Shown here: positions 1 to 61,222 of the stretch, piece by piece
How positions within the stretch are numbered: position 1 is the stretch's first letter
Layout: every line of letters begins with the position of its first letter
From: Candidatus Cloacimonadota bacterium
GTDB lineage: Bacteria > Cloacimonadota > Cloacimonadia > Cloacimonadales > Cloacimonadaceae
DNA length: 64,000 nucleotides
Reading direction: 5' to 3'
Assembly: GCA_028706475.1 (NCBI GenBank)
Contig: JAQWBI010000002.1
Coordinates: forward strand, 19,123-83,122
Position numbers and translations under genes: made by a program
The notes under the pieces: generated by a model
The model's input: only the letters and a program-made list of their open reading frames with translations
Databases searched by the model: none
What the model was told of the DNA's origin: nothing

Positions 1-1247
1 ATCAGAGTGATCAGGATGGCAAAACCGATGCGTTGCAGAAAGGATTGTACTTTTAAAGGCAGAGGCTTGCCCACTATGCCCTCTATAAAGGCAAAAAGGA
101 TGTGTCCGCCATCCAGAATGGGGATGGGCAACAGGTTCATCACCATCAGGATTAAACTGATGGAACCAAAGAAAAGGATCAGGCTGCCTGCGCCGCGTCT
201 GCCCATCTCCGAGCTCATCGATGCCATCATCACAGGACCGCCCACACTGGATTTCAATTGCGAGGGTTGTTTTACCAGATTGAATAGTGCCTGATAATTC
301 ATCAATACGAAATTCACGCTGGATGCAGCACCCAGCCTGATGGCTTCCACCGGGTTGTGACGCAGACTTTCGCTGATGGGCATGTATTGGCTGATGCCGA
401 TCATCCGTTCTTGACCCACTGCGACGTTTTCTTCCGGTTTGATTCTGCGCTCAAACTCCTCTTCTCCTCTGGCAATCCGCAAGATCACCTCGTTATTGGG
501 GGAGTTCACAATCAGCTTTCGCATTTCATACCAATCTGTTACGGCTACGCTATCCACCATCAGGATCTTGTCCATAGGTTTCAGCCCGGCGCGCCAGGCG
601 GGAAGCCCGGAAAATACCTCGCCGACTACCGTAGTTACCCTGGGGATCAAGCTGCGCATCAGAGAATCCTTATCGGCGTTGGCTACAGTTAGTTGCAGTT
701 CCTTATTATCTCTGTGATAGGTGATGGTGGGCTTTTCGGCAGAGGCAAATTCCAGCAGGAAGCGGTTGAATCCCCCCACCGGCTTGTCGTTCACAGCCAC
801 TAGTGAATCGCCGGGAACAAAATGCTGTGCCCACACTCCATCTGCAGAAGAAATCACTGGAGAAAGGTCTTCCAGCTTTTGGGGAAAGCTGAATGCCAGC
901 ATAAAGAGTAACATACCCAATATCAGATTGGCAAAGGGACCGGCAAATACTATCAATGCCCGCTGCCACCATATCTTACCGTCAAAGCGTTCATGCTCGG
1001 GCACGTTTGCGTCAGTTTCTTCCTCCTGATCGCTGCTGTCGCCTCTCATCTTCACATAGCCCCCCAGAGGAATCCAGCCAATGCGGTAATCGGTGCCGTT
1101 CCTCCGGAACTGCGTGATGGGTGCTCCAAAACCTATGGAGAACTTCTCAATGCCCACTCCGAATGCCCTGGCCACCAAAAAGTGTCCCATTTCGTGAATG
1201 GTGATCATCAGTCCCAGGGCGACCAGCATCAACAAGAGCGACAGCAT
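1..1247 (-). CDS. rseP: RIP metalloprotease RseP (site-2 protease, M50 family); C-terminal end runs off the window
   Basis: Not in the ORF track because it is open at the window edge. Own translation from the ATG at 1245-1247 (minus strand): MLSLLLMLVALGLMITIHEMGHFLVARAFGVGIEKFSIGFG... It has the HEMGH zinc motif, a PDZ-like middle region and an NLLPIPILDGGH motif (about nt 91-141). The start overlaps the kamE stop by 1 nt. Confidence 0.9.
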   Translation of the reverse strand, partial: MLSLLLMLVALGLMITIHEMGHFLVARAFGVGIEKFSIGFGAPITQFRRNGTDYRIGWIPLGGYVKMRGDSSDQEEETDANVPEHERFDGKIWWQRALIVFAGPFANLILGMLLFMLAFSFPQKLEDLSPVISSADGVWAQHFVPGDSLVAVNDKPVGGFNRFLLEFASAEKPTITYHRDNKELQLTVANADKDSLMRSLIPRVTTVVGEVFSGLPAWRAGLKPMDKILMVDSVAVTDWYEMRKLIVNSPNNEVILRIARGEEEFERRIKPEENVAVGQERMIGISQYMPISESLRHNPVEAIRLGAASSVNFVLMNYQALFNLVKQPSQLKSSVGGPVMMASMSSEMGRRGAGSLILFFGSISLILMVMNLLPIPILDGGHILFAFIEGIVGKPLPLKVQSFLQRIGFAILITL

Positions 1248-1981
1248 CAGGCCTGCTTATTACTGAGTGTGATGGCGATGTAGGAAGCGACGTCCGTGGC
1301 ATAGCTCCCAGTGCCAAAACCGGCATCATAGCCCAGTTCAATTGCCAATTCGTGAGATATCCGCGGACCTCCGCAAATGAAAAGAATCTTGTCGCGCAGC
1401 CCTTCAGCTTCCGCCAATTCGATCAGGCGGGTCAGGTTTTTGATGTGGATGTTTTTCTGAGTAACGACCTGTGAAACCAGGATGGCATCCGCATTTAGCT
1501 CACGTGCTTTTGCCAGGAGCAATTCTGATGGTACCTGAGCGCCCATATTTACAGCGTTGAAGCACTGATAACGCTCCAAACCGAAGCGATGGTTGTAGCC
1601 CTTCATGTTCATTATTGCGTCGATGCCCACGGTATGGGCGTCGCTTTCGATGCATGCTCCTACCACGGTGATGGTTCTGCCCAGATGCTCTGCCACGTAT
1701 TGATCGGTGGCATCCATATCCATCACAGGAGTTTCCACCACTTTCACTTTGATCTTGGATGTGTCCACTCCCACGGATGTTGCGGCATAGGCGATGAAAT
1801 GAGTAAAACCTTCACCGAGATCCCGCATACTGGTTATTTCAGCTTCATCAAAGCCCATGGATAAGATCAATATACGTGCTGCTTCCTTGCCGCTTACGTC
1901 GTTTTTCACCGGCAAGGCAAAGGATAGCTGGATCTTGCCGTCGTTAAGTGTGTCGCCATAGGGTTTCACGATGTGTGTCAT
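1247..1981 (-). CDS. kamE: beta-lysine (D-lysine) 5,6-aminomutase beta subunit, B12-binding
   Basis: 244 aa. VKPYGDTLNDGKIQLSFALPV, GxxxDAHTVGIDAIMNMKGY (DxHxxG cobalamin motif) and LICGGPRI match my recollection of Clostridium sticklandii KamE. A 4-nt overlap couples it to kamD. Confidence 0.85.
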   Translation of the reverse strand: MTHIVKPYGDTLNDGKIQLSFALPVKNDVSGKEAARILILSMGFDEAEITSMRDLGEGFTHFIAYAATSVGVDTSKIKVKVVETPVMDMDATDQYVAEHLGRTITVVGACIESDAHTVGIDAIMNMKGYNHRFGLERYQCFNAVNMGAQVPSELLLAKARELNADAILVSQVVTQKNIHIKNLTRLIELAEAEGLRDKILFICGGPRISHELAIELGYDAGFGTGSYATDVASYIAITLSNKQA

Positions 1982-3534
1982 AGTCCCAGCTCCTTCTTCA
2001 TTTTGTCCATAAAGGGATTATAGTATTCCTCGTGGCGTTCAAACACTCCATCCAGGCCTTTACCGCCGTTTTCGGGGCGTTTGATTTCGGCAAAATCTCC
2101 TGCTGCCATGGCATTGAAGAGGCCTTCATCCGCCACTTTTTCCAGGAATTCCGTTGCCTGTCTTAGTACCAGATTGGCACGCTCTATTATAAAACTATCC
2201 GGACTCAATTGGATGTGTTGCCCCAAGTCTTTTACTGCTTTAAAGAGATATTGAGCGTTTTCGATGGCCAGAGAGCGATCCACCAGATGGGGAGTGTGGA
2301 TGGCTTCGGTCATCATGCCCAAAAGCTGCACGCCCTGACCCGTAAGCTGTCCAATGAAATTGAACATGGCATCCATCAGATGGGTCTTGAAGATGTTGCC
2401 GCTGGCAAACTTTGTGGGCGGCATATATTTCACAGGAGCTTTGGGGAATAGTTCGCGAGTTAGCATGGCATGCGCGAGCTCGTAGCTAAAGCTGTTCTCA
2501 AATTCCGGATCGATTTCGTGGGCATGGCCCAAACCCATCTTTTCCGGCTTAACTCCGCTTAGCAAGGCAAAGCTTTCATTCAAAAGCTGAGAGGCAGTAA
2601 CGGTATAGGCTTTCTCCACAGCGTCGGAAGTAGTGAGATAGTTGTCTTCTCCAGTTTGAATCTCGATGCCGGCAAAAGCATTGATCATGCGGGCAAAATA
2701 CTGATCCAGCAAAGTGCGTTTGGGATTGATATCACGGAAGAGGATGCCGTACATGGCGTCGTTCAGCATTAGATCCAGCCTTTCGATGGCGCCCATGGCA
2801 GCAATTTCCGGCATACACAATCCGGAAGCGTAGTTGGTCAAGCTTATATAGCGCCCCAGTTCTTCAGATACTTCATCCAAGGCCTTACGCATGATGCGGA
2901 AGTTCTCCTGAGTGGCATAAGTACCGCCGAAACCAACTGTAGTGGCGCCATAAGGCACATAGTCCAGGAGCGACTGCGCAGTCGAGCGGATCACGGCGAT
3001 GATGTCCGCACCTTCACGAGCAGCGGCTTTGGCTTGAGTTACATCCTCGTAGATATTACCGGTGGCCACGATCACGTAGATGGCAGGAACGCGGCGGGGG
3101 CCATATTTGGCAAAGAAGCCTTCTCTGGCTTGCCTTTGCGAAGCGATATGATGCAGCATCTTTGAGGATAGATCCTCCAAAATGGGATACAAGTCTTTCG
3201 CTGGAGCCATGGGCAATCCGACAAGGTCGAGCTCCCCGGATGCCACGAATTCTGCTGCCCGCTGAGCGCTGATTGCTTTATGATGCATGGCATTGGCTAT
3301 CCAAATGGCCGCCCCCTTATTTAACGCTCCGGCGTTTTGTAAGGCGTCCACTACCACATTGGGCAGAGGCTTGTCGTCTTCAGTAGCGCCGTCAATACCC
3401 AAAAGACGCAGCACTGTGCGCTCTATGGTTACAGAGCTATGAGTGTCAAAGAGTCGGCTGAAGCTTCCCGTTATCCTTGCCGCAGCAGTGCGGGCACGGG
3501 AAACCAAACCGGAATCTAACTTGAGTTCTAGCAT
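1978..3534 (-). CDS. kamD: beta-lysine (D-lysine) 5,6-aminomutase alpha subunit
   Basis: 518 aa. Long colinear similarity to remembered KamD: VTIERTVLRLLGIDG, YVIVATGNIYEDVTQA, LLDYVPYGATTVGFGGTYATQENFR, CMPEIAAMGAIERLD, GEDNYLTT. Confidence 0.85.
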   Translation of the reverse strand: MLELKLDSGLVSRARTAAARITGSFSRLFDTHSSVTIERTVLRLLGIDGATEDDKPLPNVVVDALQNAGALNKGAAIWIANAMHHKAISAQRAAEFVASGELDLVGLPMAPAKDLYPILEDLSSKMLHHIASQRQAREGFFAKYGPRRVPAIYVIVATGNIYEDVTQAKAAAREGADIIAVIRSTAQSLLDYVPYGATTVGFGGTYATQENFRIMRKALDEVSEELGRYISLTNYASGLCMPEIAAMGAIERLDLMLNDAMYGILFRDINPKRTLLDQYFARMINAFAGIEIQTGEDNYLTTSDAVEKAYTVTASQLLNESFALLSGVKPEKMGLGHAHEIDPEFENSFSYELAHAMLTRELFPKAPVKYMPPTKFASGNIFKTHLMDAMFNFIGQLTGQGVQLLGMMTEAIHTPHLVDRSLAIENAQYLFKAVKDLGQHIQLSPDSFIIERANLVLRQATEFLEKVADEGLFNAMAAGDFAEIKRPENGGKGLDGVFERHEEYYNPFMDKMKKELGL

Positions 3535-11002: not shown

Positions 11003-11003
11003 A

Positions 11004-11795
11004 TCAAGACCACAATTCCCATAGTTTTATCATGGCACCGCTGCCAGCAACAATGCCGATGGTGATGATGATGGCTTCCGCTCCCCGCGCTGTTCCGGCC
11101 ACCAGATCTCCGCTCATGGTATCCCTGATGGCGTTTACTATCTGCAAACCAGGCACCAGAATCATGATGCCGCCGATGATGATGTAATCCAGGCGGATAA
11201 AGGGAATGAAGATATCCATAGTTTTACTGATCAATACTATCAAAGCTGCTGCCAGGGCATTGAGCAGAAAGTTGTTTACCGGCAATCTGGAGATGTATTT
11301 CAAGCTGGCACTTACCAAAAAGCCCATGATAAAAGCTGCTGCAAATTCGCTCCAGGAACCTCCGAAGAGCAAACAAAAGAAACCGCTGGTTGAAGCGCCG
11401 CTGAGATTGGTAAGCCACATGGGGTATGTTTTTTCGGCTTGGATTCTTTGCAACTCACGAGCAAAGTATTCGCTTTTGGATAGTCCCATTAGCTCTTGAT
11501 CACAGAGTCCGCTATGAAGACAATTGACCACCCGGCTGATTTCTGTGATCTTACCCAAATCCATGCGGCGATGGTCTATACGCTTTATACTTGTGCTCAG
11601 TTCCTCATCTTTGTCGCTGATGGAAAGAAAGATGCCGGTGGGAGTTACAAAAGACTCACAATCCGGAAAACCCAAACCAATGCACACTTTGTGGATCATC
11701 AGCTCCACCCGGTTTGTGGCACCACCGCTTTCCAGGATGATGCGACCCGTTTCCAGGGCCAGTTTCATACATTGCTGCAGGCTTGTCTTTCCCAT
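11004..11795 (-). CDS. threonine/serine exporter family protein (ThrE/YjjP-like, DUF1212)
   Basis: 263 aa. Soluble N-terminal half followed by a TM bundle, with a GGATNRVE-type motif near the N-terminus. The start overlaps the stop of the MutS-related gene. Confidence 0.75.
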   Translation of the reverse strand: MGKTSLQQCMKLALETGRIILESGGATNRVELMIHKVCIGLGFPDCESFVTPTGIFLSISDKDEELSTSIKRIDHRRMDLGKITEISRVVNCLHSGLCDQELMGLSKSEYFARELQRIQAEKTYPMWLTNLSGASTSGFFCLLFGGSWSEFAAAFIMGFLVSASLKYISRLPVNNFLLNALAAALIVLISKTMDIFIPFIRLDYIIIGGIMILVPGLQIVNAIRDTMSGDLVAGTARGAEAIIITIGIVAGSGAMIKLWELWS

Positions 11796-13354
11796 TATTC
11801 TTGCTCTTTCACCAAATCCAGGATTTCTCTCGGCATACCCAGAATGGAGGCTATCCTGATGGCGTCCATCGGAGGTTTTCGGTTTGCTTTCAAATGCACC
11901 AGGCTGTAGTCCATAGCTTGAGAAAGCTTACGCAGGCGCTCGTTCAGATCCTCGCACATACTTTGTTCGGCATCGGCATCAATGCCCTTGATCTGATATT
12001 GTCGGATTCCTCTTAACAGGGCAGGAGCAGTGAAGTGGGTGGCAGCAATGGTGGTATGTCTGCTGTTCGATAGATACGTAATAACTGCAGCAGCAAGAGC
12101 TTCACCTTCCCGGGGATTGGTTCCTTTGGCAAATTCATCCAGAAGGAACAATCCGCGTCCTTCCTTGTTCAGAGCGCTGCAGAATGCCACCAGTTCATAG
12201 CCGAAAGAAGAGAGGTCTTCAGCTTCTGAGGCATGGTTGTAATATACGAAATCATAGATGGGCAGTGTAGCTTGTTCTGCAGGCAGGGGGATGGCAAAAC
12301 GCAGTAAAATGGCGCATTGAGCCAGACATTTCAGGATGCTGGTTTTCCCACCCATATTTGGTCCGGTGATCAGGTTTGCATTGGTGGAAAAATCCAGGTT
12401 CAACTTTTGATAACTGCGTTTACGGCTAAGGACTGCCAGTTCCAAAGGCAGATTACGGGCTTGCTTTAGGGAGATGTGATCCGATATTTTGGGAATGCAA
12501 CAGCGGTATCGGCGAGCAAAAGCAGCCAGAGAGAAATCCCATCCCAGTTCTTTTACGCTAGCAAGAGCACGCTTTAATAAATCATATTGCTGCGATACTT
12601 CTTCTCCCAAGCGTTTCAATATGCTGTATTCCTCACTTTCGATCTCTTTTGCCAATGCTGCGAGTTCTTTCTTGATGCCGTTTGTTTCCGGATTGTCCGC
12701 CAAAATAAAGATCAAGTTGCTGATGCTTTCGCGACTTAGCGTGAAGTAGATGCTGTTTTGGATTTTTAGGATCAGATTCTGCTGATTGCGGGAGAGCACA
12801 AACTCGTCTTTTAAGTTGTCTATACCCAGTTTACTTTGGGCTTCATTCAAGAATTCTTTGCGGCTGTGTTTCAGCCTTCTGTTCAGCTCATTCCTGCGCT
12901 TGACCATATTCTGCAGGGCTTTACTATACAACGGGGATAACCGGAAAGAGGGGATTCTGCCGCCTTCAGGATCCAAAAGCACAAAAAGTCCTTCCAAATC
13001 CGGCAGATCATAAGCAGCAATTTTGTGGGACTCAGCATACTTTTTGAGGGCGTCGTAATGATAGATGAAGCTCTTTAGCTCGTAAAGCTCGTGGATGGCA
13101 GGATTACCTTTTTTGAATATGGAAAGATTAAAATCCATAAAATGAGCCAGCAGATTGTTCCATTTCGCTTCAGAATCGTGACTAAGCTCCGCTATGAAGC
13201 ATTCCCGTCTCCGGTATGCCTCAATGATCTCGAGAGGTTCATGGTATACGGAGCTCAGTTTTTGACGTTTTACCGCTTCAAAGAAATCACCGGGAACTGA
13301 GATCAATTCATAAATCTTATCCAGCCCCAAGAGCCGGTTCTGCTGTTTATTCAT
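11795..13354 (-). CDS. MutS-related ATPase (MutS domain V only; no mismatch-binding or Smr domain)
   Basis: GPNMGGKTS Walker A, LFLLDEFAKGTNPREG Walker B and SSFGYEL (the MutS 'ST-F..E' motif). Start moved from 13612 to the ATG at 13352-13354 (MNKQQNRLLGL...), because the longer ORF reads through repeat module A copy 2. Confidence 0.8.
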   Translation of the reverse strand: MNKQQNRLLGLDKIYELISVPGDFFEAVKRQKLSSVYHEPLEIIEAYRRRECFIAELSHDSEAKWNNLLAHFMDFNLSIFKKGNPAIHELYELKSFIYHYDALKKYAESHKIAAYDLPDLEGLFVLLDPEGGRIPSFRLSPLYSKALQNMVKRRNELNRRLKHSRKEFLNEAQSKLGIDNLKDEFVLSRNQQNLILKIQNSIYFTLSRESISNLIFILADNPETNGIKKELAALAKEIESEEYSILKRLGEEVSQQYDLLKRALASVKELGWDFSLAAFARRYRCCIPKISDHISLKQARNLPLELAVLSRKRSYQKLNLDFSTNANLITGPNMGGKTSILKCLAQCAILLRFAIPLPAEQATLPIYDFVYYNHASEAEDLSSFGYELVAFCSALNKEGRGLFLLDEFAKGTNPREGEALAAAVITYLSNSRHTTIAATHFTAPALLRGIRQYQIKGIDADAEQSMCEDLNERLRKLSQAMDYSLVHLKANRKPPMDAIRIASILGMPREILDLVKEQE

Positions 13355-13465
13355 CTTTCTTTTCAATCCTTTGTTGCATTTTTGGATATTGCCGCTTGGT
13401 GTCAAGGTAAAAAGGAATTTGTGGACAGGAACAAGCATCGAGACGACTCTTAAACCAAAGCTATG

Positions 13466-13531
13466 CCGAAGCTGATATAAAGGTGTTGTGATCCTGTGTT
13501 CACTCGATGATAACTCGATAATATCAGGTTC
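13466..13531 (+). repeat. module A palindromic repeat, copy 2 (left arm degenerate)
   Basis: CCGAAGCTGATATAAAGGTGTTGTGATCCTGTG-TT-CACTCGATGATAACTCGATAATATCAGGTTC. Confidence 0.8.
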
Positions 13532-13767
13532 AAGTATAGATAGCGCAGAGGAGGAAAGAAGAAGAAAACTGGCTGAACTGTGCCGGTGCTCGCTGTAGCG
13601 CTGAAATTGCATGAGTATAACATCGCTTACACATTAATAAAGGCGGAACGGCGTCCGCCTGTAATGTACTCATATACCTTTTCTTTCAGAAAAAGAACCA
13701 ACCAGACCATCGACTCAACTACGGCTTATGATCCTTTTGGATAATAATCGTGAGGCAACTGAATTGC

Positions 13768-41855: not shown

Positions 41856-44800
41856 ATGGCTCGGCTTTTCAGCAAAGATTACCACGACAAGTCCAATAGC
41901 TGGTATTTCAATCATGCTGTTATTCTGCTTGAAGATGGAGATTTGTGGCATTGGCACACTTTGGATGAATCCGATAATGTGATATTGCGCTTTTACCCCA
42001 GCCGGGACAAACGCGAGTATTTCAGCGCCTGGGTGGAAGTGCACTACGATCCTCGCGAGAAACGCATCCTATCTTATCAATGTGCAGAATGCGGTCACGA
42101 CGAAAGCTGCCGTCACTACCTGTCTTTACTGCGCTATTCCTACAACTTCATCTCCGATGACATCCTGAAAGAAGAACTGGTGCAAACCTGCGATTCGGAC
42201 TGTCTGAGAGGAAATCTCCGCTGGATAGACAGTGCTCACCGCTTCAAGCTTCTATTTGAAAACATATACAATCCCAGCTCCGCAAAGATTCGCATTTATC
42301 ATCAGGGTCTGGAGGATGTGGATGTGCCGTCATTACTGAAGATGCTGAAAGATTATGAATACTTCAGCGAGGAGCTGGTAGAAAACTATCGGGTCTTCGA
42401 CTACTTTCAGCTGGCTTTCTTTGAATACATGGCAAAATCCGGCATCCATTACAGTGTTAAGAATCAAAATTGGTCGATACCTAAAGCTCAATTTGCAGAA
42501 CTGCTGATGCATCTGGAGCAGATGTCCGGAAGGCTCTTTGTGAAAGAGACCAATGAGGAGCTTACCTTTGCAGCTCAGCCCTATCCGCTGGCTCTACGGA
42601 TAGACAAAGCCGGGAAAACGAACTACAATCTCTTTCCAGTGCTGGTTGATGAAGTATCAGCTTGGTTTTCGGGTTATCCCACCTGGCTTTTCTTCCGTAA
42701 CAGGATTCATAAAGTATGGCTTCCTTTCAAAGAACCCATAATCGATGCCATCTTCAAGCGGGAAATGCAGATCACGGCTAAGGATCTGGTGTACTACCGC
42801 AGTATAGTGCACAACGAACTATCCCGTCAGGATATCTATCTGGATTTCAGCGAATCCATAGAACTGCCGAGAATCATGTACAGCAAGCCCAAAGGCAGGC
42901 TCTATGTAAAGGCTTTGGGTGAAGACATCCTGATCGATGGCTTTTTGGTGTATGAGGATAGTTACGAATTGCCGCTGAGTGCGTTGAAGTACCGTAAATC
43001 CCTGGTGAATAGCGTGTATCGAGGGGGCGATGCGAACGACAAAATCTGGTTCTATCTCTCACCTGATCTGCAGGACAAAGCGCAAGCCTTGCTGGATATG
43101 CTGCCAGTTCCGGAGATTAACCAACTGGAACAGAAGTCTCAACTGGTCTTTAAAAATGAGGATTTTCCCGCTCTGCAAAAAGCAGTGTTCCGCATTGATG
43201 AACAGGATTGGGAACTGATCATAGACGAAAGCCTGAGCAACAGGTTCATTACCAAGATCCATCTTGAGGCAGATATCCGCGTGCAAAGAACAGAGGATAT
43301 CGATTGGTTTAGCTACGAGATCAGCTATCGTCATAAGGATTTGCGTTTCAGTCATGAAGAACTTGCCCGCTACTTCAAGTCCAAAGATGAATTTCTGCAC
43401 ACAGTGGACGGCAGGATATTCTTCATCAGCAATCCCCAGATATTTTCCGAAGTGGATCACCTGCTGGTGCGCAGTCAGAAAGATACAGATTCGGTGTATC
43501 GTGCCCGCATCCTGAATCTGCCCTATTATCAGAGGCTGAGGGAAGAAAATCCTGCTTTCAAAATAATTGGTGATGACTATCTGGAAAACCTGTTTGAAGA
43601 CCTTCACGAACGCAAACTAAAGCGTAGTCCGGAATTACCTTCCTTTTTACAGACCATTCTGCGTGGATATCAGAAGTCGGGAGTAGCTTGGCTGTCCATG
43701 TTGAAACACTATCGTCTAAACGGTATACTGGCAGACGAGATGGGATTGGGCAAGACCATTCAGGCTCTTGCTATGATTGCTATGGCACCTGAAGACAGCG
43801 TCAACATGGTGATTTGTCCCAAAACTCTGCTCTACAACTGGGCTGGAGAGATCGAGAAATTTCATACAAACATACCTTACGCAATTGTAGAGGGCAACAC
43901 CACAAACCGCATCGAGCTTTTGCAAAATCCCAATATCCGGCTGTACATAATGAGTTACTCCATGGTTTCCAGCGACGCATCTCAATTGAAAAACATGCAT
44001 TTCGATTGGCTGATTCTGGATGAAGCTCAGAACATCAAAAACGTATCCGCACTGCGAACCAAGGCCATCAAGAAGCTGAATTCAAACCACCGTATGGCAC
44101 TTTCCGGCACTCCCATAGAGAATAACCTCACCGAATTGTGGAGCATCATGGACTTTTTGATGCCCGGTTATATGGGTAGCCTGAAAAGCTTCAAAGATAA
44201 ATACATGAAACCGGAGGATGATCGGGAAGCCAGGCAATCTCTGCACAGGCTATGCTCGCCCTTCCTGCTGCGCCGTGTGAAAAAGGAAGTGTTGCTGGAG
44301 CTGCCGGATAAACAGGAACAAATCTCCTGGTGCAAAATGAGCGCAATTCAAGAGAAATTGTATCTGCAGATTCTGGATACCGTTCAGAAGAAACTGATGC
44401 CCGGTACTACCGAAGAAATGAGCTATGTACACATATTGGCGGCACTTACGAAACTGCGTCAGGTATGTAATCATCCGCATCTGGCCAATAGCGATGTCCT
44501 TCCCGTTCCTGAGCTTTCAGCGAAACTGGAGATGCTGGTGGAATTGGTGCAAGACGCTATCTCCGCAGGACACAAGATCCTTGTCTTTTCCCAGTTTGTG
44601 CAGATGCTGCAGATCATCAGAAAGGTGTTTGACGATTTGGGAGTGAAGTATAGCTATCTGGATGGCAAAACCCGGGATCGGGCGGAGCAAGTGGCAGCTT
44701 TTGAACATGATGAAGACATCCGTCTGTTTCTTATCAGCCTGAAGACGGGAGGTACCGGCTTGAATCTGACTGCTGCAGACACTGTGATCTTGTATGACCC

Positions 44801-45026
44801 CTGGTGGAATCCCATGGTGGAAAATCAAGCTATCGACCGCACTCACCGCATCGGACAAACCAGGAAAGTACAGGTATTCAGGCTGATTACCAAAGCCAGC
44901 GTGGAAGAGAAAATACTGTCCTTACAAAAGAACAAAATAGAGCTCTTCAATGAAGTAATCGAAGGTGGTACGGGAGTATTGAAATCGATGAGTCTTGAAG
45001 AGCTTAAAGGCCTGTTTTCTTACTAA
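41856..45026 (+). CDS. SNF2-family helicase with an N-terminal SWIM zinc finger and SNF2-associated domain
   Basis: 1056 aa. SWIM CxC...CxH (CAECGHDESCRH), SNF2_N motif I LADEMGLGKT, motif II DEAQNIKN, and Helicase_C (LISLKTGGTGLNLT, QAIDRTHRIGQ). Confidence 0.9.
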   Translation: MARLFSKDYHDKSNSWYFNHAVILLEDGDLWHWHTLDESDNVILRFYPSRDKREYFSAWVEVHYDPREKRILSYQCAECGHDESCRHYLSLLRYSYNFISDDILKEELVQTCDSDCLRGNLRWIDSAHRFKLLFENIYNPSSAKIRIYHQGLEDVDVPSLLKMLKDYEYFSEELVENYRVFDYFQLAFFEYMAKSGIHYSVKNQNWSIPKAQFAELLMHLEQMSGRLFVKETNEELTFAAQPYPLALRIDKAGKTNYNLFPVLVDEVSAWFSGYPTWLFFRNRIHKVWLPFKEPIIDAIFKREMQITAKDLVYYRSIVHNELSRQDIYLDFSESIELPRIMYSKPKGRLYVKALGEDILIDGFLVYEDSYELPLSALKYRKSLVNSVYRGGDANDKIWFYLSPDLQDKAQALLDMLPVPEINQLEQKSQLVFKNEDFPALQKAVFRIDEQDWELIIDESLSNRFITKIHLEADIRVQRTEDIDWFSYEISYRHKDLRFSHEELARYFKSKDEFLHTVDGRIFFISNPQIFSEVDHLLVRSQKDTDSVYRARILNLPYYQRLREENPAFKIIGDDYLENLFEDLHERKLKRSPELPSFLQTILRGYQKSGVAWLSMLKHYRLNGILADEMGLGKTIQALAMIAMAPEDSVNMVICPKTLLYNWAGEIEKFHTNIPYAIVEGNTTNRIELLQNPNIRLYIMSYSMVSSDASQLKNMHFDWLILDEAQNIKNVSALRTKAIKKLNSNHRMALSGTPIENNLTELWSIMDFLMPGYMGSLKSFKDKYMKPEDDREARQSLHRLCSPFLLRRVKKEVLLELPDKQEQISWCKMSAIQEKLYLQILDTVQKKLMPGTTEEMSYVHILAALTKLRQVCNHPHLANSDVLPVPELSAKLEMLVELVQDAISAGHKILVFSQFVQMLQIIRKVFDDLGVKYSYLDGKTRDRAEQVAAFEHDEDIRLFLISLKTGGTGLNLTAADTVILYDPWWNPMVENQAIDRTHRIGQTRKVQVFRLITKASVEEKILSLQKNKIELFNEVIEGGTGVLKSMSLEELKGLFSY

Positions 45027-45539: not shown

Positions 45540-45846
45540 AATTCTCTCCATTGAAGGGTCTCTTTGTAGGATATAATAAGCATGTTTCACCTATATGCCA
45601 GATTAATGACTGCCATTATTCAATAATTGCGCTGATCTAGCACATGAAGTTTAGGTGTAAAAAACAAGCCGCGAATATATCACGGCTTGAACAAACACAC
45701 GACTATCAAGTTATCACAGCATCCCTTATTTGTGGTAGGGAGAAGTGCTTGGCGGATTTATTATTGACACAATCCGCAATTCCAAAATCATGGAAAGACT
45801 AAGGTAAGTATATAAGAAAAAATAGATTAAATCCTGTGGAGGAATT

Positions 45847-46905
45847 ATGAAAACTGGCGGATGCCGCTATGGAACCCATCGTGTAATCGAACCCAAGGGT
45901 GTGTTGCCTCAGCCTGCCCGCGTTCTCAATAACGACATGAATGAGATTTGGGACAACGAATTGAAAATTGACGTTATCAGACTGAATGTGGACAGTGCTT
46001 CGTTTCACCAGATCAAGAACAAGCTCCAGGCTCAAGGACACACCGATCTGGAAAAAGCTTTTGCGGATCATGCAATTGACCTTACAAACCGCACAGGAAA
46101 GCATAAGAACGAAGATACAGGCAGCGGTGGCATGCTGATCGGCAGAGTGGCGGAAATTGGTCCCAAATTCGAGATGAAAGATAATATCAAAGTAGGGGAC
46201 AAGATCGCCAGTCTGGTGTCTCTCTCACTTACTCCGCTCAAGATCAATAAAGTAAAAAAAGTACTCCTGGATAAAGACCAGGTGGAGATCGAAGGTCAAG
46301 CCGTCCTTTTCAGTAGCGGTATCTATGCAAAGCTTCCGGATGATATGGACGAAAACCTCGCCCTCTCCGTATTGGACGTTGCCGGAGCACCTGCTCAGGT
46401 AGAGCGCCTCGTGAAGGCAGGCGACAATGTGGTGATCATCGGCGCAAACGGCAAGAGCGGAATACTCTGCAATGCCGTGGCGAGAGAACGCGTCGGAGTC
46501 TCCGGGAAGGTAATCGGAGTGGTACGCAATCAGAACTACATCCCCACATGCAAGGAAACCGGTTGCCATGAAGTAATCATCGCCAATGCCACAGACGCAA
46601 TCACCATTCAGAAAGAAGTATCCCGCTTCACCGACGGCAAGATGGCAGATGTGGTGATAAACGTTGTAAACATAGAAGATACAGAGCTTCCCACCATTAT
46701 GGCCGCCAGGGATAGAGGCCTGGTGTATTTCTTCTCCATGGCTACTTCTTTCACCAAAGCCGCATTGGGAGCCGAGGGTATTGGTGCGGATGTGGATATG
46801 ATACTGGGTAATGGCTACGCTCGCAATCACGCTATGGTCGCGTTGGATTTGCTACGCAGAAACCCGGTACTTTTGAAGCTGTTCAAAGAACGCTATACAG
46901 ATTGA
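45847..46905 (+). CDS. kdd: L-erythro-3,5-diaminohexanoate dehydrogenase
   Basis: 352 aa. The N-terminus GCRYGTHRVIEPKGVLPQPA...LNVDSASFHQI matches remembered Kdd sequences. GGAGG RBS. Directly upstream of kamA. Confidence 0.85.
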   Translation: MKTGGCRYGTHRVIEPKGVLPQPARVLNNDMNEIWDNELKIDVIRLNVDSASFHQIKNKLQAQGHTDLEKAFADHAIDLTNRTGKHKNEDTGSGGMLIGRVAEIGPKFEMKDNIKVGDKIASLVSLSLTPLKINKVKKVLLDKDQVEIEGQAVLFSSGIYAKLPDDMDENLALSVLDVAGAPAQVERLVKAGDNVVIIGANGKSGILCNAVARERVGVSGKVIGVVRNQNYIPTCKETGCHEVIIANATDAITIQKEVSRFTDGKMADVVINVVNIEDTELPTIMAARDRGLVYFFSMATSFTKAALGAEGIGADVDMILGNGYARNHAMVALDLLRRNPVLLKLFKERYTD

Positions 46906-46919
46906 TCCAGGAGCATACA

Positions 46920-48164
46920 ATGAGCATAATAGACATCCGTTCAATCGCAACTGCCGAGCAGTGGAACGATTGGCATTGGCAGCTACAGAATCGCATCACT
47001 GATGTTTCTGAGCTGCGCAAATACATCACCTTGCTTCCGGAGGAAGAAGCGCTGTTTGCCAAGCAGGAGTTTTCCTTTCGCATGGCGATTACCCCCTATT
47101 ACCTGTCTCTGATAGATCACAGCAATCCCAATGATCCCGTGCGCATGCAGGCTATTCCCCGGGTTTACGAAAGCGAGATGAGCAGCTCAGACATGGCGGA
47201 TCCCCTGCACGAGGATGCGGATGCCCCCGTTCCGGGGATGACACACCGTTATCCGGATCGCGTACTGCTGTTGCTCACTGATCAGTGTGCGATGTATTGC
47301 CGCCACTGTACCCGTCGCAGAAAGGCTGGAGAGCACGATGCTCCCATGCCCGCAGAGAATGTGGATAAAGCCATCGAATACATCCGTGAACACAGGGAAA
47401 TCCGCGATGTAATCCTTTCCGGAGGCGATCCCCTCACCCTGGGCGATGAGCGTCTGGACTCCATTTTGGAGAAACTAAGTAAGATAGAGCATCTGGATAT
47501 CGTGAGATTGGGCACCAGAACTCCGGTTGTCCTGCCTCAACGGATCACGGATTCACTTCTTGCAGTGCTAAAGAAGTATCCCTTTGTGTGGCTGAACACC
47601 CATTTCAACCATCCTCAAGAGATTAGTGACATTGCAGCGAAAGGGCTTGCCCGCCTGGCTGAAGCTGGCTTGCCTTTGGGCAATCAATCCGTATTGCTGA
47701 AAGGCATCAACGACCATGTTGATGTGATGAAAGCCTTGGTTCACAAGCTTGTACGCAACCGCGTAAGACCTTATTACATATATCAATGTGACCTTTCTGA
47801 AGGCATCAGCCATTTCCGTACTCCGATTTCCCGAGGGATCGAGATCATGGAATCACTGCGTGGTCACACCAGCGGATTGTGCGTGCCTACCTTTGTGGTG
47901 GACGCTCCCGGTGGTGGCGGAAAGATACCTGTAATGCCAAATTACATCATATCCCAGATGCCTGGCAGGGTGATCCTGAGAAACTATGAAGGCTTTATTA
48001 CCAGTTACACAGAACCCGGTTTTGAAGTACTGGATACCGATAAATACCGGGATCTATGCCCGCGTGAACGCGAAAGCAGCGAAGGTGTGATGAGCTTGCT
48101 GAAAGGTAAGCATGTGTCGATAGGTCCTGCCGAGACGAAGCGGAATCAACGCCGTAAACACTAA
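46920..48164 (+). CDS. kamA: L-lysine 2,3-aminomutase (radical SAM)
   Basis: Start moved to the ATG at 46920 (GGAG RBS). CAMYCRHCTRRR radical-SAM cluster motif and a WNDWHWQLQNRI N-terminus typical of KamA. Confidence 0.95.
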   Translation: MSIIDIRSIATAEQWNDWHWQLQNRITDVSELRKYITLLPEEEALFAKQEFSFRMAITPYYLSLIDHSNPNDPVRMQAIPRVYESEMSSSDMADPLHEDADAPVPGMTHRYPDRVLLLLTDQCAMYCRHCTRRRKAGEHDAPMPAENVDKAIEYIREHREIRDVILSGGDPLTLGDERLDSILEKLSKIEHLDIVRLGTRTPVVLPQRITDSLLAVLKKYPFVWLNTHFNHPQEISDIAAKGLARLAEAGLPLGNQSVLLKGINDHVDVMKALVHKLVRNRVRPYYIYQCDLSEGISHFRTPISRGIEIMESLRGHTSGLCVPTFVVDAPGGGGKIPVMPNYIISQMPGRVILRNYEGFITSYTEPGFEVLDTDKYRDLCPRERESSEGVMSLLKGKHVSIGPAETKRNQRRKH

Positions 48165-48177
48165 TTCAAAGGCTGAT

Positions 48178-49173
48178 ATGAAGAAACTGATTTCCACCGG
48201 GGTTATAAAGAACATAGCCTTGGTGGGAATCAGCAAAAATGCCGGTAAAACCTCGCTATTGAACTCCCTTCTAAAAGAATTTCCCCTGCCAGACAGAGCT
48301 GTAATGAGTACCGGAATAGATGGTGAAAGTGAGGACAGAGTATTCAAGACTCCCAAACCGCAAGTCCATCTCTTCAAAGGGGATATCTTTTGTTGTGATG
48401 CAAACACTGTTACTCAACACGGAAGCTCAGTTAGCTTGCTTCATTCCTCTCAATACGCCGGGCGCAAGCTATATTTGGCCAGGGCTGAAGAGAGCCTGGC
48501 TACTCAGATCACAGGCCCATCGGCTCTCAGTCATCAACGTGTTATGATCGATACGATGCACCAGCTTGGGGCACACAAGGTCTTTATAGATGGTTCCCTG
48601 GATCGCAAATCCATCGCTCTGGACGACAGCATAGATGCCTTGATTCTGGCTATCGGAGCCAGCTTTGGATCTACAGAGCAGATTGTGACTGAGATACGCC
48701 GTCTATGTATCTTGCGGGATATCCCCACCGCGGAGCTTAGTGTATCCTGTTATAACAGATTGAAGGAGAGCGATGCCCTCATGATTCTGCGTAAAGCGCA
48801 ATGGCAGAGTACAGGCATCAAAAGTCTGATAGGCAACGAGAAGAAGGTGCTGGAGCTTTTGGAGCAGGAGCCCCGGGCTTTATATGTGCCCACATCGTTT
48901 ACAGATTCCCTTTATGAGAAGCTAGGCAGAACCTTGTCCAAGCCTGGTTTTGAGATGATTTTGCGCCATCCTGAATGCCTGAAACTCAATATTGCCAATC
49001 TGAGGGGATTGATGAAGCACACACAGACCAAGTGTCTGATATCTTTCAAGTTGGCAGCATTTGCACTGAATTCCACAGCTATCGGCAGTGATCCCATCTC
49101 AGCGGATCTCTTTCGGGAGGATATCCGCACGGCCTTCCCCCGGGAGCAGTTTTATGACATCATGGAGATATAG
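48178..49173 (+). CDS. uncharacterised P-loop protein coupled to kamA
   Basis: 331 aa. Walker-A-like VGISKNAGKTS at aa 16-26 (nt about 48223-48255). It starts 13 nt after the kamA stop and is followed with no gap by the CDF transporter gene. Confidence 0.55.
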   Translation: MKKLISTGVIKNIALVGISKNAGKTSLLNSLLKEFPLPDRAVMSTGIDGESEDRVFKTPKPQVHLFKGDIFCCDANTVTQHGSSVSLLHSSQYAGRKLYLARAEESLATQITGPSALSHQRVMIDTMHQLGAHKVFIDGSLDRKSIALDDSIDALILAIGASFGSTEQIVTEIRRLCILRDIPTAELSVSCYNRLKESDALMILRKAQWQSTGIKSLIGNEKKVLELLEQEPRALYVPTSFTDSLYEKLGRTLSKPGFEMILRHPECLKLNIANLRGLMKHTQTKCLISFKLAAFALNSTAIGSDPISADLFREDIRTAFPREQFYDIMEI

Positions 49174-50097
49174 ATGACACATGATCGAGACTTATTAACA
49201 TCACTTACAGTGAATTTGGGAATGTGCAGCAACATAGTACTGGCTATTCTCAAGACTGGAATCGGTATATTGGGGCACAGTCCCGCAGTTTTGGCAGACG
49301 GCATCAATTCCACTTCTGACTTTGTCTATTACATTGCGGTGAAGATCTTTATGAAACAGGCCCGGAAACCGGCAGATAAAGAGCACCCCTTTGGACACCG
49401 TCAGTTGGAATCCATCTCAGCCATAGTGGTGGGAGCCTTCATTCTCACTACAGGGATCACCATTTTTTGGGAGAGCATCAATAAGGTCTATGACCTCATC
49501 AGTGGTGTGGAAGCTGGTAGATCAGCCTCAATATGGGCTTTGACGATAGCGATCGCTACTTTTATAGTCAAGCTGGGCCTCTATTTCTACACCCGGGGAA
49601 CTGCCAAAAAGACCAACAATCCTACTCTGAAGGCATTGGCCAATGATCATTTGAACGATATCATGGCTTCCGTTGCGGTTATTGTCGGCGTAGTGTTGGG
49701 CAGAATGGGTTACTACTGGATGGATCCTGCAGCTGGAGCGGTTGTAGCAATCTACATCATCAAGACCGGAGTGGAGATAATTATGGATTCATCCACAGAG
49801 TTGATGGATCACATTCCGGATGATGGATTTGGTAGGGAGTTGCGTGATGTGACCCTATTGGTTGAGGGAGTAAAAGGTATTGACGACATGGGCTTACACC
49901 GTTTTGGACCGTATTATACCATTAGCATGACCATCAGCGTTTCCGGTGATATCTCCATCGATGAAGGGCACAGAATCTCCAATGAAGTGGAAAAAGCACT
50001 TTTGAAACACTTTAACAACGGTCTGCGCCAAGTACACATCCATTATCATCCCTATGAGGTGAACAATCCCAATCCCCAAGGAGTATCCAGCATATGA
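49174..50097 (+). CDS. cation diffusion facilitator (CDF) family metal efflux transporter
   Basis: 307 aa, 6 TM helices, with H/D metal-site motifs (ADGINSTSD, NDHLND) and a C-terminal cytoplasmic domain. Confidence 0.85.
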   Translation: MTHDRDLLTSLTVNLGMCSNIVLAILKTGIGILGHSPAVLADGINSTSDFVYYIAVKIFMKQARKPADKEHPFGHRQLESISAIVVGAFILTTGITIFWESINKVYDLISGVEAGRSASIWALTIAIATFIVKLGLYFYTRGTAKKTNNPTLKALANDHLNDIMASVAVIVGVVLGRMGYYWMDPAAGAVVAIYIIKTGVEIIMDSSTELMDHIPDDGFGRELRDVTLLVEGVKGIDDMGLHRFGPYYTISMTISVSGDISIDEGHRISNEVEKALLKHFNNGLRQVHIHYHPYEVNNPNPQGVSSI

Positions 50098-58126: not shown

Positions 58127-60229
58127 TTGCACAGCTTTTTATTTGAACTGGGAATTGAAGAACTGCCGGATAGTGTAATAGTGCCTGCCATCAACAGTAT
58201 CAAGCTATCTTTCGAAAAAATGCTTTCAGAGCAAAATCTGGATCATGGGGAAATCCGCATAGGCTCCACACCGCGTCGACTTGCCATATCTGCCGCCGGC
58301 CTTCCGGAAAAGCAAGCGGATGTGGAGATCTGTAAAACGGGTCCATCTGTGACTATCGCATACGATGACAAAGGAAACCTCAGCAAAGCCGGTATGGGTT
58401 TTGTACGCAAATGCGGTGCGGCAGAACAGGATGTCTTTGTGCAAAAGACGGAGAAAGGCGAGTTTATCGCGGTTAGCTTTGTGCAAAAAGGCATGCAGTG
58501 CAGGGAAATCCTGCGGGATTGGATTCCAGAAGCCATCAGCCAGATTCCCTTGCCTAAAAAGATGATCTGGAAAAGCAAGAGCTTGGCTTTTTCCCGTCCC
58601 ATCCGCTGGATCGTAGCTTTGTGGGATACTCAGATCATAGATTTGGATTTTCATGGCATCAGCTCCGGCAGAACCAGCTTTGGAAACCGCTATCTGGGAC
58701 TGGATATAAGCATCGAAATCCAAAGTGCTGCAGACTATGAAGGCGCTATGACCTCTGGTTGTGTGATCGTGGATCGGGAGAAACGTCGCTCCATGATAAC
58801 CGATCAATTCTCCACCCTGTTTACAGATGGCAGTCTCATGGTAAAACCGGATGAGCGGTTGCTGGAAACGGTATGTAATCTGGTGGAGTATCCCTGGGCA
58901 GTGATAGCGGAATTTGATGCCTCCTTTTTAAAACTTCCGGAGAGAATCATCACTTCTACAATCAGCCAAAATCAAAAATACTTCTCTGTGTATGGCGCTG
59001 ATGGAGCTTTGAGCAACAAATTTGTCTTCATCTCAAACGGAGATCCCAAACAAAGTGAAATCATCAAAGCCGGGAATGAGAAAGTGGTGGCAGCAAGGCT
59101 GGAAGACGCTCTGTGGTTTTTTGAGGAAGATTGCAAGCGTGGTCTGGATGCATTTGTACCCCATCTGACAGAGGTGGTATTTCAATCACAACTGAGCACA
59201 ATGGCAGACAAAACCAATCGAATCCTGGCAATAAGCGAGTATCTTTGCTGCGAATTGAGTTATGATGATGCACAAAAGATTAAGGTAATGAGAACCGCTC
59301 AACTGTGTAAGGCAGATCTTTTGAGCTTGATGCTGGGGGAAAAGGAATTTGCCAAGCTTCAGGGTTATATGGGCATGCACTATGCTCTGGTTGCTGGCGA
59401 GGATCCGGAAGTGGCTCAAGGCATCTACGAGCACTATATGCCCCGGGGCAGCAACGACAGCCTGCCGCAGAGCGTTTGCGGTGCTATATGTGCGGTGGCG
59501 GATAAATTGGATACGGTATGTGGGATTATCGGAGTGGGGCTGATGCCCACGGGAAGCGCTGATCCTTTTGCCTTGCGCAGAGCAGCCGGAGGCTTGGTTC
59601 AGATAGTTGCCGACCGGGCTTGGGATATAGATCTGGAACACTTGATTGACTTTGCTTTCGATATCTTGTCCACAAACAAGGTGCAGCTTAAACCAGGCAG
59701 CAAGGACAATTGTAAGAGCTTTTTTGCCCAGCGTGTAAACTGGTTATTGAAAGAACTGGGCATCGCCTATGATACCGTGGCCAGCGTTTGTGTGGCAGGA
59801 TTTGCGCGTTTACCTCATCTGATAGCCAAGGCTCGTGCTTTGGAGGAATTGAGGCAGGACAGCAGTTTTGTTAAATTGGTTATTGGCTTCAAACGTGTAT
59901 CGAACATCATAGAAAGAGAAACAGGACTGGCAACCGCAGATCCTGCACTCTTTGAAAGTGAAGCCGAACGCGATCTATACGATGGATTGAGCAGCCTAAG
60001 TAAAAATATCGGAGAGGCCCTTTTGCATCTGGATTATCCGGGTGCACTATTGGAACTGGTGGACTTTGGCGAAAAAATCGACGCTTTCTTCGATAATGTG
60101 TTGGTAAATTGCGAAGATCCTATCCTCAGGCAAAACCGGCACAAGCTCCTGGCTGCCATCCGTGCGGAGTTTATAAAAGTAGCTGATCTCTCTTTGATAG
60201 TAGTAGATTCCGATAAAAATGGAGAATAA
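58127..60229 (+). CDS. glyS: glycine--tRNA ligase beta subunit
   Basis: 700 aa. N-terminal FLFELGIEELP, colinear GlyS motifs and a C-terminal anticodon-binding domain. Apparent TTG start. Confidence 0.9.
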   Translation: MHSFLFELGIEELPDSVIVPAINSIKLSFEKMLSEQNLDHGEIRIGSTPRRLAISAAGLPEKQADVEICKTGPSVTIAYDDKGNLSKAGMGFVRKCGAAEQDVFVQKTEKGEFIAVSFVQKGMQCREILRDWIPEAISQIPLPKKMIWKSKSLAFSRPIRWIVALWDTQIIDLDFHGISSGRTSFGNRYLGLDISIEIQSAADYEGAMTSGCVIVDREKRRSMITDQFSTLFTDGSLMVKPDERLLETVCNLVEYPWAVIAEFDASFLKLPERIITSTISQNQKYFSVYGADGALSNKFVFISNGDPKQSEIIKAGNEKVVAARLEDALWFFEEDCKRGLDAFVPHLTEVVFQSQLSTMADKTNRILAISEYLCCELSYDDAQKIKVMRTAQLCKADLLSLMLGEKEFAKLQGYMGMHYALVAGEDPEVAQGIYEHYMPRGSNDSLPQSVCGAICAVADKLDTVCGIIGVGLMPTGSADPFALRRAAGGLVQIVADRAWDIDLEHLIDFAFDILSTNKVQLKPGSKDNCKSFFAQRVNWLLKELGIAYDTVASVCVAGFARLPHLIAKARALEELRQDSSFVKLVIGFKRVSNIIERETGLATADPALFESEAERDLYDGLSSLSKNIGEALLHLDYPGALLELVDFGEKIDAFFDNVLVNCEDPILRQNRHKLLAAIRAEFIKVADLSLIVVDSDKNGE

Positions 60230-61222
60230 ATGCACATCTTGGAAACTTTGAAAAGAAGAGCAACCGCCATCGGCGGAAGCATTGTACTACCCGAATCCCA
60301 CGACCAAAGAACTCTGGCCGCCGCTGCAAGTCTGGCCGGACAGAAGATTGCCAGAGTAATCCTCTTGGGCGAACCAGCCGAAGTGACAAACAATGCCGCT
60401 CAATTGGGAGCGGACATCTCCTCTTGCACAATCATAAATCCAGTGAAAAGTACTGAATTGGAGGATTTTGCCGAGACCTTCCATCAGCGGCGCAAAGAAA
60501 AGGGCGTCAGCAAGGAACAAGCCTTGGAAACCATGAAGAATCCGCTGTATTTTGGTGCGATGATGGTAAAAAAGGGACTGGCGGGAGGAATGGTGGCTGG
60601 TGCGGCCAACACCACTGCGGACGTATTGCGTGCCGCTTTGCAGGTGGTGGGCGTGATGCCGGGGCTGAAAACAGTATCTTCTACCTTTATAATGGTATCA
60701 CCGCGCGCGGGTGATCCCACGTATTTATTTGCGGATTGCGCCGTAGTACCAAATCCCGATTCTGAACAATTGGCAGATATTGCCAACTCCACTGCAATCA
60801 CTCGACGTTCAATCTTGGGTGATGAGCCTTTTGTGGCGCTGCTCTCTTTCTCCACAAAGGGTAGTGCCGATCATGAGCTAGCGGAGAAAGTACGCGTAGC
60901 AAAGTCAATCTTGGATGCCCGAAAAGTGGATTTTGCTTATGATGGAGAACTCCAATTGGATGCGGCAATAGTTCCAAAGATAGCGAAGTCCAAAGCTCCA
61001 GACAGCAGTGTAGCGGGGCATGCAAACACTTTGGTATTTCCGGATCTGCAAGCCGGGAATATCGGTTACAAATTGGTTCAGCGATTGGGAGGCTACGAAG
61101 CAATAGGCCCCATCATACAAGGTCTGGCTGCTCCCATATGTGATCTTTCTCGCGGCTGTTCCGCCGAGGATATAGTGAATACAGCCATTCTTGTGTTATT
61201 GATGGCGAAAAATTTAAAATAG
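60230..61222 (+). CDS. pta: phosphate acetyltransferase (short form)
   Basis: 330 aa. IVLPESHDQRTL, GMVAGAANTTADVLR, and the SFST(K)GS and GNIGYK motifs. Confidence 0.8.
   Translation: MHILETLKRRATAIGGSIVLPESHDQRTLAAAASLAGQKIARVILLGEPAEVTNNAAQLGADISSCTIINPVKSTELEDFAETFHQRRKEKGVSKEQALETMKNPLYFGAMMVKKGLAGGMVAGAANTTADVLRAALQVVGVMPGLKTVSSTFIMVSPRAGDPTYLFADCAVVPNPDSEQLADIANSTAITRRSILGDEPFVALLSFSTKGSADHELAEKVRVAKSILDARKVDFAYDGELQLDAAIVPKIAKSKAPDSSVAGHANTLVFPDLQAGNIGYKLVQRLGGYEAIGPIIQGLAAPICDLSRGCSAEDIVNTAILVLLMAKNLK

Follow-up and report, generated by a model that had tools for sequence, protein, structure and literature searches.

The core enzyme of lysine 5,6-aminomutase (5,6-LAM), termed E1 and composed of KamD and KamE (KamDE), undergoes substrate-dependent suicide inactivation to a cob(III)alamin form, and an auxiliary sulfhydryl protein of approximately 80 kDa, termed E2, is responsible for its ATP-dependent activation and reactivation (PMC3958899, 2014; PMC9081730, 2022). 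Neither of these two reviews assigns a gene to E2. By its title, a later paper describes an ATP-dependent, structurally distinct reactivating factor for lysine 5,6-aminomutase (Darbyshire and Wolthers 2024, Biochemistry 63:913-925; cited in PMC12633315). The reactivating factor is therefore already published, and kamB and kamC are named as genes in curated databases. The gene described here lies in a stretch of 64,000 nucleotides from the genome of a Candidatus Cloacimonadota bacterium (contig JAQWBI010000002.1), hereafter the window, directly downstream of kamA. Its product is very likely the Cloacimonadota KamB, which would combine with KamC into the ATP-dependent factor that reactivates KamDE (the historical E2). 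KamDE requires adenosylcobalamin (AdoCbl) and pyridoxal phosphate.

An earlier annotation of this DNA, made from its letters and hereafter called the original prediction, had already proposed that the gene encodes a component of the reactivase, had raised the name kamB and had expected a MutS-like ATPase as its partner. This agrees with the NCBIfam models NF052386 and NF052383 and with the RefSeq entry WP_133527450.1. Its statement that kamB and kamC had never been defined is out of date, as the 2024 paper describes a reactivating factor for the enzyme and curated databases name the two genes. It had also mentioned a hypothetical protein and a MutS-like ATPase in the lysine cluster of Fusobacterium, which fits the 'HP' and 'mutS' genes in the lysine-cluster models of F. 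nucleatum, a Bacteroidetes contig and Cloacimonas (Perret et al. 2011, PMC3149608), though the legend of that figure gives no position for either gene within the cluster. A literature search found no open-access paper that assigns genes to the reactivase, and the C. sticklandii genome paper contains nothing on genes for it.

The only family match of the window protein is to NF052386, "lysine 5,6-aminomutase reactivase subunit KamB" (E-value 2e-50, 171.6 bits). The alignment runs end to end, with residues 13-326 placed on model positions 1-324 of 326, and this full-length match, obtained by the kind of profile search that the original prediction had suggested, favours the reactivase assignment. 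That prediction recognised no family signature besides the P-loop, which holds for Pfam, where a scan of KamB returned no family and only a sub-threshold P-loop match to MMR_HSR1 (E 0.041), but not for NCBIfam, where NF052386 covers the family. The orthologue from Aminicella (WP_133527450.1) is named lysine 5,6-aminomutase reactivase subunit KamB in RefSeq, while the GenBank copies are still "hypothetical". Among the 120 closest database proteins listed, the named ones belong to Cloacimonadota and are mostly "hypothetical protein", with occasional labels of "CobW-like GTP-binding", "GTPase domain-containing" and "predicted nucleotidyltransferase".

A conservation alignment of 32 sequences, which extends down to 22% identity, contains 15 invariant positions (G17, K20, N21, G23, K24, T25, G46, G49, E50, D53, P61, G113, D138, G139 and R143), and N298 and D48 are nearly invariant. 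The window protein carries every residue that is invariant in the KamB family, located in the GxxKNxGKT, TGxDGExxD and DGxxDR motifs together with a C-terminal Asn, and the 15 invariant residues provide a set for mutagenesis. The P-loop is contained in GISKNAGKTS (residues 17-26, nt 48226-48255). It is of the G-x5-G-K-T type, one residue longer than the classical [AG]-x4-GK[ST], a loop length that we take to be like that of BioD/CobQ-type loops. With this loop length, the label "Walker-A-like" given to it in the original prediction is apt.

An AlphaFold2 model of KamB, built from a 33-sequence alignment, has a predicted local distance difference test score (pLDDT) of 90.6 and a predicted template modelling score (pTM) of 0.87. 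The P-loop is positioned between strand 12-17 and helix 24-34 in this model, which is the topology of P-loop proteins, and the protein is predicted to comprise a P-loop core at the N-terminus, an insertion rich in beta strands (approximately residues 60-110) and a C-terminal alpha/beta domain of approximately 140 residues. A Foldseek search of the PDB with the model, a check that the original prediction had also put forward, gave no significant match: nothing was found at E<=1e-3, and the template modelling (TM) score was at most 0.38. The best matches, all weak, were to guanylate kinase (E 5.7e-3), Get3 (0.017-0.07), SRP54 (0.067) and McdA (0.09), and those to HypB, MeaB and MMAA were not significant (E 0.17-0.25, TM-score approximately 0.2-0.35). 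A single-sequence search of PDB sequences with KamB returned nothing at E<=10, and a profile search of PDB sequences returned nothing significant, the best entries being a de novo designed ATPase (E 0.071) and MobB (E 0.46). As modelled, the KamB fold appears to be without a solved relative beyond the generic P-loop.

A scan of one genome per species yielded 80 loci with a kamB homologue (Cloacimonadota 42, Bacillota 38), and the gene order in them was compared through tblastn searches with the window proteins. The Bacillota loci are mostly from Anaerovoracaceae and include Aminicella lysinilytica, Eubacterium minutum and Emergencia timonensis. The kamA gene is directly upstream of the kamB homologue in 77 of the 80 loci. 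In Bacillota, kamC directly follows kamB in all 34 loci that extend 2 kb or more downstream, and kamD and kamE follow kamC in all 24 that extend 6 kb or more, which gives the order kdd..kamA-kamB-kamC-kamD-kamE. Linkage of the homologues to kam genes, on which the original prediction had staked its proposal, is thus what the sample exhibits. In a neighbour-joining tree all Cloacimonadota are on one long branch, and the window is located inside a derived clade of 30 loci (L001-L030). The order found in the window, kdd-kamA-kamB followed by a cation diffusion facilitator (CDF) gene and an M23 peptidase gene rather than by kamC, is conserved in 29 of these 30 loci; L028, the exception, has neither the CDF nor the M23 gene. 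The order kdd-kamA-kamB-kamC is retained in four early-branching Cloacimonadales (L031, L032, L034 and L040) and bridges to the kdd-kamA-kamB arrangement of the window.

Two loci of more distant family members exhibit the linkage to kam genes as well. In L081 kamD is directly after kamB, and in L085 the order is kamB-kamC-kal-kce-kdd-kamA-kamD-kamE-thiolase. A GlmL-like gene (L085 269-2143), belonging to the ASKHA family and of the glutamate-mutase accessory type, is encoded approximately 6 kb upstream of kamB-kamC in this last locus, whose lysine-fermentation cluster is complete, so that two kinds of putative B12-enzyme accessory protein are present in one neighbourhood.

The genes for the expected partner and client of KamB are all present in the window. 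The kamC gene was identified by NF052383, titled lysine 5,6-aminomutase reactivase ATPase KamC, and kamC, kamD and kamE are full length and score above their curated cut-offs (Table 1). The original prediction did not report these three genes elsewhere in the same window. With kdd, the complete kamA-kamE set is encoded within 64 kb at three separate places, and kamB and kamC need not be co-located. KamC features a Walker A motif (GPNMGGKT) at residue 417 and a Walker B motif (LFLLDE) at residue 488; MutS_V is its sole Pfam domain, and approximately 300 N-terminal residues are without a Pfam match. Its true start is likely M87 (nt 13354), which would give a protein of approximately 519 aa and 59 kDa. 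KamC is similar to MutS and MutS2 in having the ABC-type ATPase of MutS domain V with Walker A and B, but differs from them in that MutS domains I, II and IV, which serve as mismatch-binding, connector and clamp domains, were undetected and in that its score is under the MutS and MutS2 cut-offs. We infer from the predicted masses of KamB (36.7 kDa) and KamC (approximately 59 kDa) that the factor is of the same order of size as the old estimate for E2. No kce, kal, kat or second kamB was found in the 64-kb window. Perret et al. 2011 (PMC3149608) report dispersed lysine-fermentation genes in 'Candidatus Cloacamonas acidaminovorans', which the missing kce, kal and kat fit.

Other genes adjoin these loci. 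A gene for formate-tetrahydrofolate ligase (3722-5392, minus strand) directly precedes kamD-kamE. Next to kamC is a pair of ThrE-family genes (10550-11795, minus strand) encoding a putative threonine/serine exporter, and the start of this pair is overlapped by the kamC stop. Two lysine clusters of Bacillota also encode ThrE homologues (L046 2307-3071 and L079 1840-2580), approximately 7 kb ahead of kamB, and the ThrE-family genes could encode amino-acid transporters tied to the lysine pathway.

The ORF begins with an ATG, encodes a 331-aa product and is separated by a 13-nt spacer (kamA end 48164, kamB ATG 48178) from kamA, whose start is overlapped by kdd. The three genes compose a tight co-directional unit, kdd-kamA-kamB, which agrees with the original prediction in gene length, spacing and coordinates. 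A promoter-like site is located ahead of kdd at 45764-45791, by consensus match only. A phmmer search of 1.84 billion representative proteins (50%-identity clusters) identified 1277 homologue clusters at E<=1e-3, of which 566 reach E<=1e-10; almost all are approximately 330 aa long. The ratio of nonsynonymous to synonymous substitution rates (dN/dS) against two relatives is 0.10-0.16 for kamB and 0.02-0.05 for kdd and kamA. Due to the number of homologue clusters and the low dN/dS, kamB is clearly a genuine gene under purifying selection. A minus-strand ORF that overlaps kamB (48054..48407) is regarded as a shadow ORF. The kdd operon is closely preceded by a gene for an SNF2-family helicase of 1056 aa (41856-45026, plus strand), approximately 600 N-terminal residues of which have no Pfam match; this gene keeps its position in the closest relatives (L001-L003, L005 and L007).

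A mechanism for the factor can be proposed in which KamDE would inactivate itself in turnover through oxidation of bound cob(II)alamin to cob(III)alamin, and KamBC would then bind the dead holoenzyme. ATP binding and hydrolysis by KamBC would open the enzyme and free the damaged cobalamin, after which fresh AdoCbl would rebind KamDE. Repair of this kind would keep the second step of lysine fermentation going (lysine to beta-lysine to 3,5-diaminohexanoate and onwards). With an ABC site in KamC, the P-loop may make KamB a nucleotide-gated adaptor or cofactor-handling subunit as opposed to the motor. The KamB and KamC proteins of F. nucleatum reportedly co-purify and hydrolyse ATP; they are said to reactivate 5,6-LAM by exchange of hydroxocobalamin for AdoCbl and are reportedly inactive on ornithine 4,5-aminomutase.

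Relative to the KamB/KamC factor of NF052386 and NF052383, the window copy exhibits full-length homology, the length of approximately 330 aa, the same invariant motifs, the same place after kamA, and kamC and kamDE in the same genome, whereas it differs in its score under the cut-off, in the split cluster and in the CDF gene that is joined to it instead. The reactivases of diol and glycerol dehydratase and of ethanolamine ammonia-lyase release damaged cobalamin using ATP; both reviews named above cite Toraya and Mori 1999. DdrAB/GdrAB and EutA thus share with the proposed factor a presumed job, in which ATP drives damaged cobalamin out of an AdoCbl enzyme after its suicide inactivation. They are Hsp70/ASKHA-type ATPases, whereas KamB belongs to the P-loop proteins and KamC to the MutS-type ABC ATPases. 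An assignment of KamB itself to the ASKHA-type reactivases was considered and rejected, as the model is a P-loop alpha/beta structure, none of these proteins is among the Foldseek matches listed (P-loop NTPases and kinases) and there is no such match in Pfam or NCBIfam. MeaB and MMAA also resemble KamB as P-loop NTPases that service a B12 enzyme, with a weak local structural resemblance in the nucleotide-binding core only. The G3E/SIMIBI NTPases (MeaB, HypB, Get3 and SRP54) are without a counterpart of the beta-rich insertion and the C-terminal domain predicted for KamB. Membership of KamB in G3E/CobW/MeaB was rejected with no ArgK or CobW match in Pfam or NCBIfam (E<=0.1) and no significant Foldseek or PDB profile result. 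Membership in the nucleoside-kinase families was rejected with no Foldseek match at E<=1e-3, and from the same search membership in the Get3/SIMIBI families appears unlikely.

Several observations weigh against the identification of the gene as kamB. The 171.6 bits of the window protein are under the curated NF052386 cut-off of 210 bits, and the Cloacimonadota KamB clade, on its long branch, evolves 3-5 times faster than kdd and kamA. The window gene is not adjacent to kamC (35 kb away) or to kamDE (45 kb away), and is tightly joined to a CDF gene in their place. In one lineage of Cloacimonadales (L036-L038) kamB-CDF is retained and there is no kam gene nearer than 10 kb, and two of five context-sampled distant family members are outside any kam context within the available sequence. 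The low score is shared by all seven Cloacimonadota orthologues that were scored, which include L011, L028, L031, L032, L036 and the window protein; the six others reach 146-194 bits, all under 210. Five Bacillota orthologues score 386-394 bits, and the window KamB is approximately 27-30% identical to the Bacillota proteins. L031 and L032 keep the kamA-kamB-kamC adjacency yet also score under the cut-off. The shortfall looks like a limit of the seed set of the model and not like evidence against orthology; the case for orthology is made by the end-to-end alignment, the synteny that bridges the arrangements and the residues that are conserved, and not by the cut-off. It is due to these scores that KamB annotation is missing from Cloacimonadota.

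Among the distant members, L082 (3734-4768; 70% GC) contains a kamB-like gene after DUF444-SpoVR-MoxR. The encoded protein (P0191) scores 241 bits on NF052386, above the cut-off, and would therefore be named KamB automatically despite its MoxR/SpoVR context. In L083 (6622-7671) and L084 (723-1772), both with 25% GC, folD is followed by a kamB-like gene and then by a gene for a 643-aa protein without a family match. The large proteins encoded downstream of the kamB-like genes in L082 and L083 were examined as divergent KamC proteins and rejected, as they do not match a 43-sequence KamC hidden Markov model, Pfam or NCBIfam. With such members outside kam contexts, family membership alone does not guarantee function.

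The position of kamB allows for clients other than KamDE. Since kamA is immediately upstream in 77 of the 80 loci, and since kamB stayed by kdd-kamA in Cloacimonadota when the cluster broke up and kamC, kamD and kamE moved off, KamB might serve the radical-SAM enzyme KamA, for example as an ATP-dependent activase or in cluster maintenance. Recombinant KamA enzymes are, however, active without such a partner; kal, kce and kdd separate kamB-kamC from kamA in L085, kamD directly follows kamB in L081, kamB is present without kamA nearby in L036-L038, and kamB-kamC-kamD-kamE is invariant in Bacillota. It was moreover for the B12 enzyme that an ATP-dependent accessory activity was described (PMC3958899, PMC9081730), and the 2024 paper names 5,6-LAM in its title as the target of the factor. 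A dedicated role with KamA is hardly credible. A different client is suggested by the CDF gene, as KamB of the derived Cloacimonadota could have drifted to another or an additional role tied to this exporter, such as nucleotide-dependent metal handling. The kamB stop codon TAG (49171-49173) abuts the CDF ATG (49174), and the two genes are adjacent in 32 of the 42 Cloacimonadota loci (the L001-L030 clade and L036-L038). In L036-L038, where the order is S9 peptidase, kamB-like, CDF, the pairing is kept with neither kdd nor kamA closer than 10 kb; to this can be added that the Cloacimonadota clade is under the KamB cut-off and that one NCBI homologue record is labelled 'CobW-like GTP-binding protein'. 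Such a label is not borne out by Pfam or NCBIfam, which gave no CobW/G3E match, or by Foldseek, where the matches to HypB and MeaB were not significant. The protein retains all KamB invariants with kamC, kamD and kamE intact in the window, and the CDF protein is far nearer to the Fe/Zn-type MamM/FieF than to the Co/Ni-type DmeF. Gene order conserved within one phylum can also be plain inheritance, and the kamB-CDF pairing may represent inherited gene order or a functional link. A drift of KamB to the exporter is regarded as very doubtful.

Within a role on KamDE, KamB could act by re-adenosylating the enzyme-bound cobalamin from ATP, as an adenosyltransferase-like 'AdoCbl synthetase', rather than by promoting exchange. 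KamB has its own invariant P-loop besides the ABC-type site of KamC, which leaves two nucleotide sites to explain, and the activity was suggested by old data on impure E2 only. Historical E2 was not prepared as a pure recombinant protein, though, and the structural searches do not point to such an enzyme: Foldseek gave no match at E<=1e-3 with no adenosyltransferase among the matches listed, and the PDB profile search gave nothing significant. The F. nucleatum proteins, moreover, reportedly reactivate by exchange. We consider re-adenosylation unlikely. The KamB fold could also be a more general nucleotide-gated module for cofactor or metal handling, with a Cloacimonadota copy that has a second client or acts without KamC. 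This is proposed because of the kamB-CDF coupling, the L036-L038 lineage without kam genes, and the distant members beside MoxR or helical-repeat proteins, and it is distinctly improbable.

With a reactivating factor for 5,6-LAM already described and its genes named in curated databases, the identity of E2 poses no new question. What is new here is a divergent Cloacimonadota KamB clade that is missed by current models, a fragmented kam cluster in which kamC and kamDE are apart from kamB, a confident model of a predicted fold without structural precedent, and a conserved kamB-CDF pairing together with a small number of family members found outside lysine fermentation. In anaerobic digesters, Cloacimonadota are abundant fermenters of amino acids. 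As the seven Cloacimonadota KamB proteins scored are under the cut-off and the clade is unannotated, lysine-fermentation reconstructions for this phylum miss the reactivase subunit.

Table 1. Location of kamB, its predicted motifs and the associated genes in the window, with the basis for each assignment.
Feature	Position (nt)	Strand	Basis
kamB orthologue (very likely), P-loop subunit of lysine 5,6-aminomutase reactivase	48178..49173	+	NF052386, synteny, AlphaFold model, dN/dS
P-loop G17-I-S-K20-N21-A-G23-K24-T25, G-x5-GKT type	48226..48252	+	Invariant residues; strand/helix placement in model
Acidic loop T45-G-I-D-G-E-S-E-D53 after strand 2, candidate Mg2+/switch region	48310..48336	+	Conservation; role suggested by position
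D138-G-S-L-D-R143 at end of strand 134-138, Walker-B-like (putative role)	48589..48606	+	Conservation
kdd, L-erythro-3,5-diaminohexanoate dehydrogenase, first gene of the unit	45847..46905	+	NF052381, 239.9 bits (cut-off 200)
kamA, lysine 2,3-aminomutase (radical SAM)	46902..48164	+	TIGR03820, 582.5 bits (cut-off 525.4); Pfam LAM_C and Radical_SAM
CDF cation-efflux transporter	49174..50097	+	Pfam Cation_efflux and ZT_dimer; ATG abuts kamB stop
kamC, MutS-like ABC-type ATPase, predicted KamB partner	11795..13612	-	NF052383, 335.9 bits (cut-off 300); residues 96-603 on model 2-506 of 508
kamD, lysine 5,6-aminomutase	1978..3534	-	NF052384, 807.3 bits (cut-off 600)
kamE, lysine 5,6-aminomutase beta (B12-binding) subunit	1247..1981	-	NF052385, 370.6 bits (cut-off 280)

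The remainder of the window contains further genes. A phosphotransacetylase gene (60230-61222, plus strand) is located approximately 11 kb downstream of kamB. The glyQ (20866-21720, minus strand) and glyS (58127-60229, plus strand) genes are 37 kb apart on opposite strands and do not form the usual glyQS operon. Type IX secretion and gliding-type genes are also present in the window, which fits Cloacimonadota.

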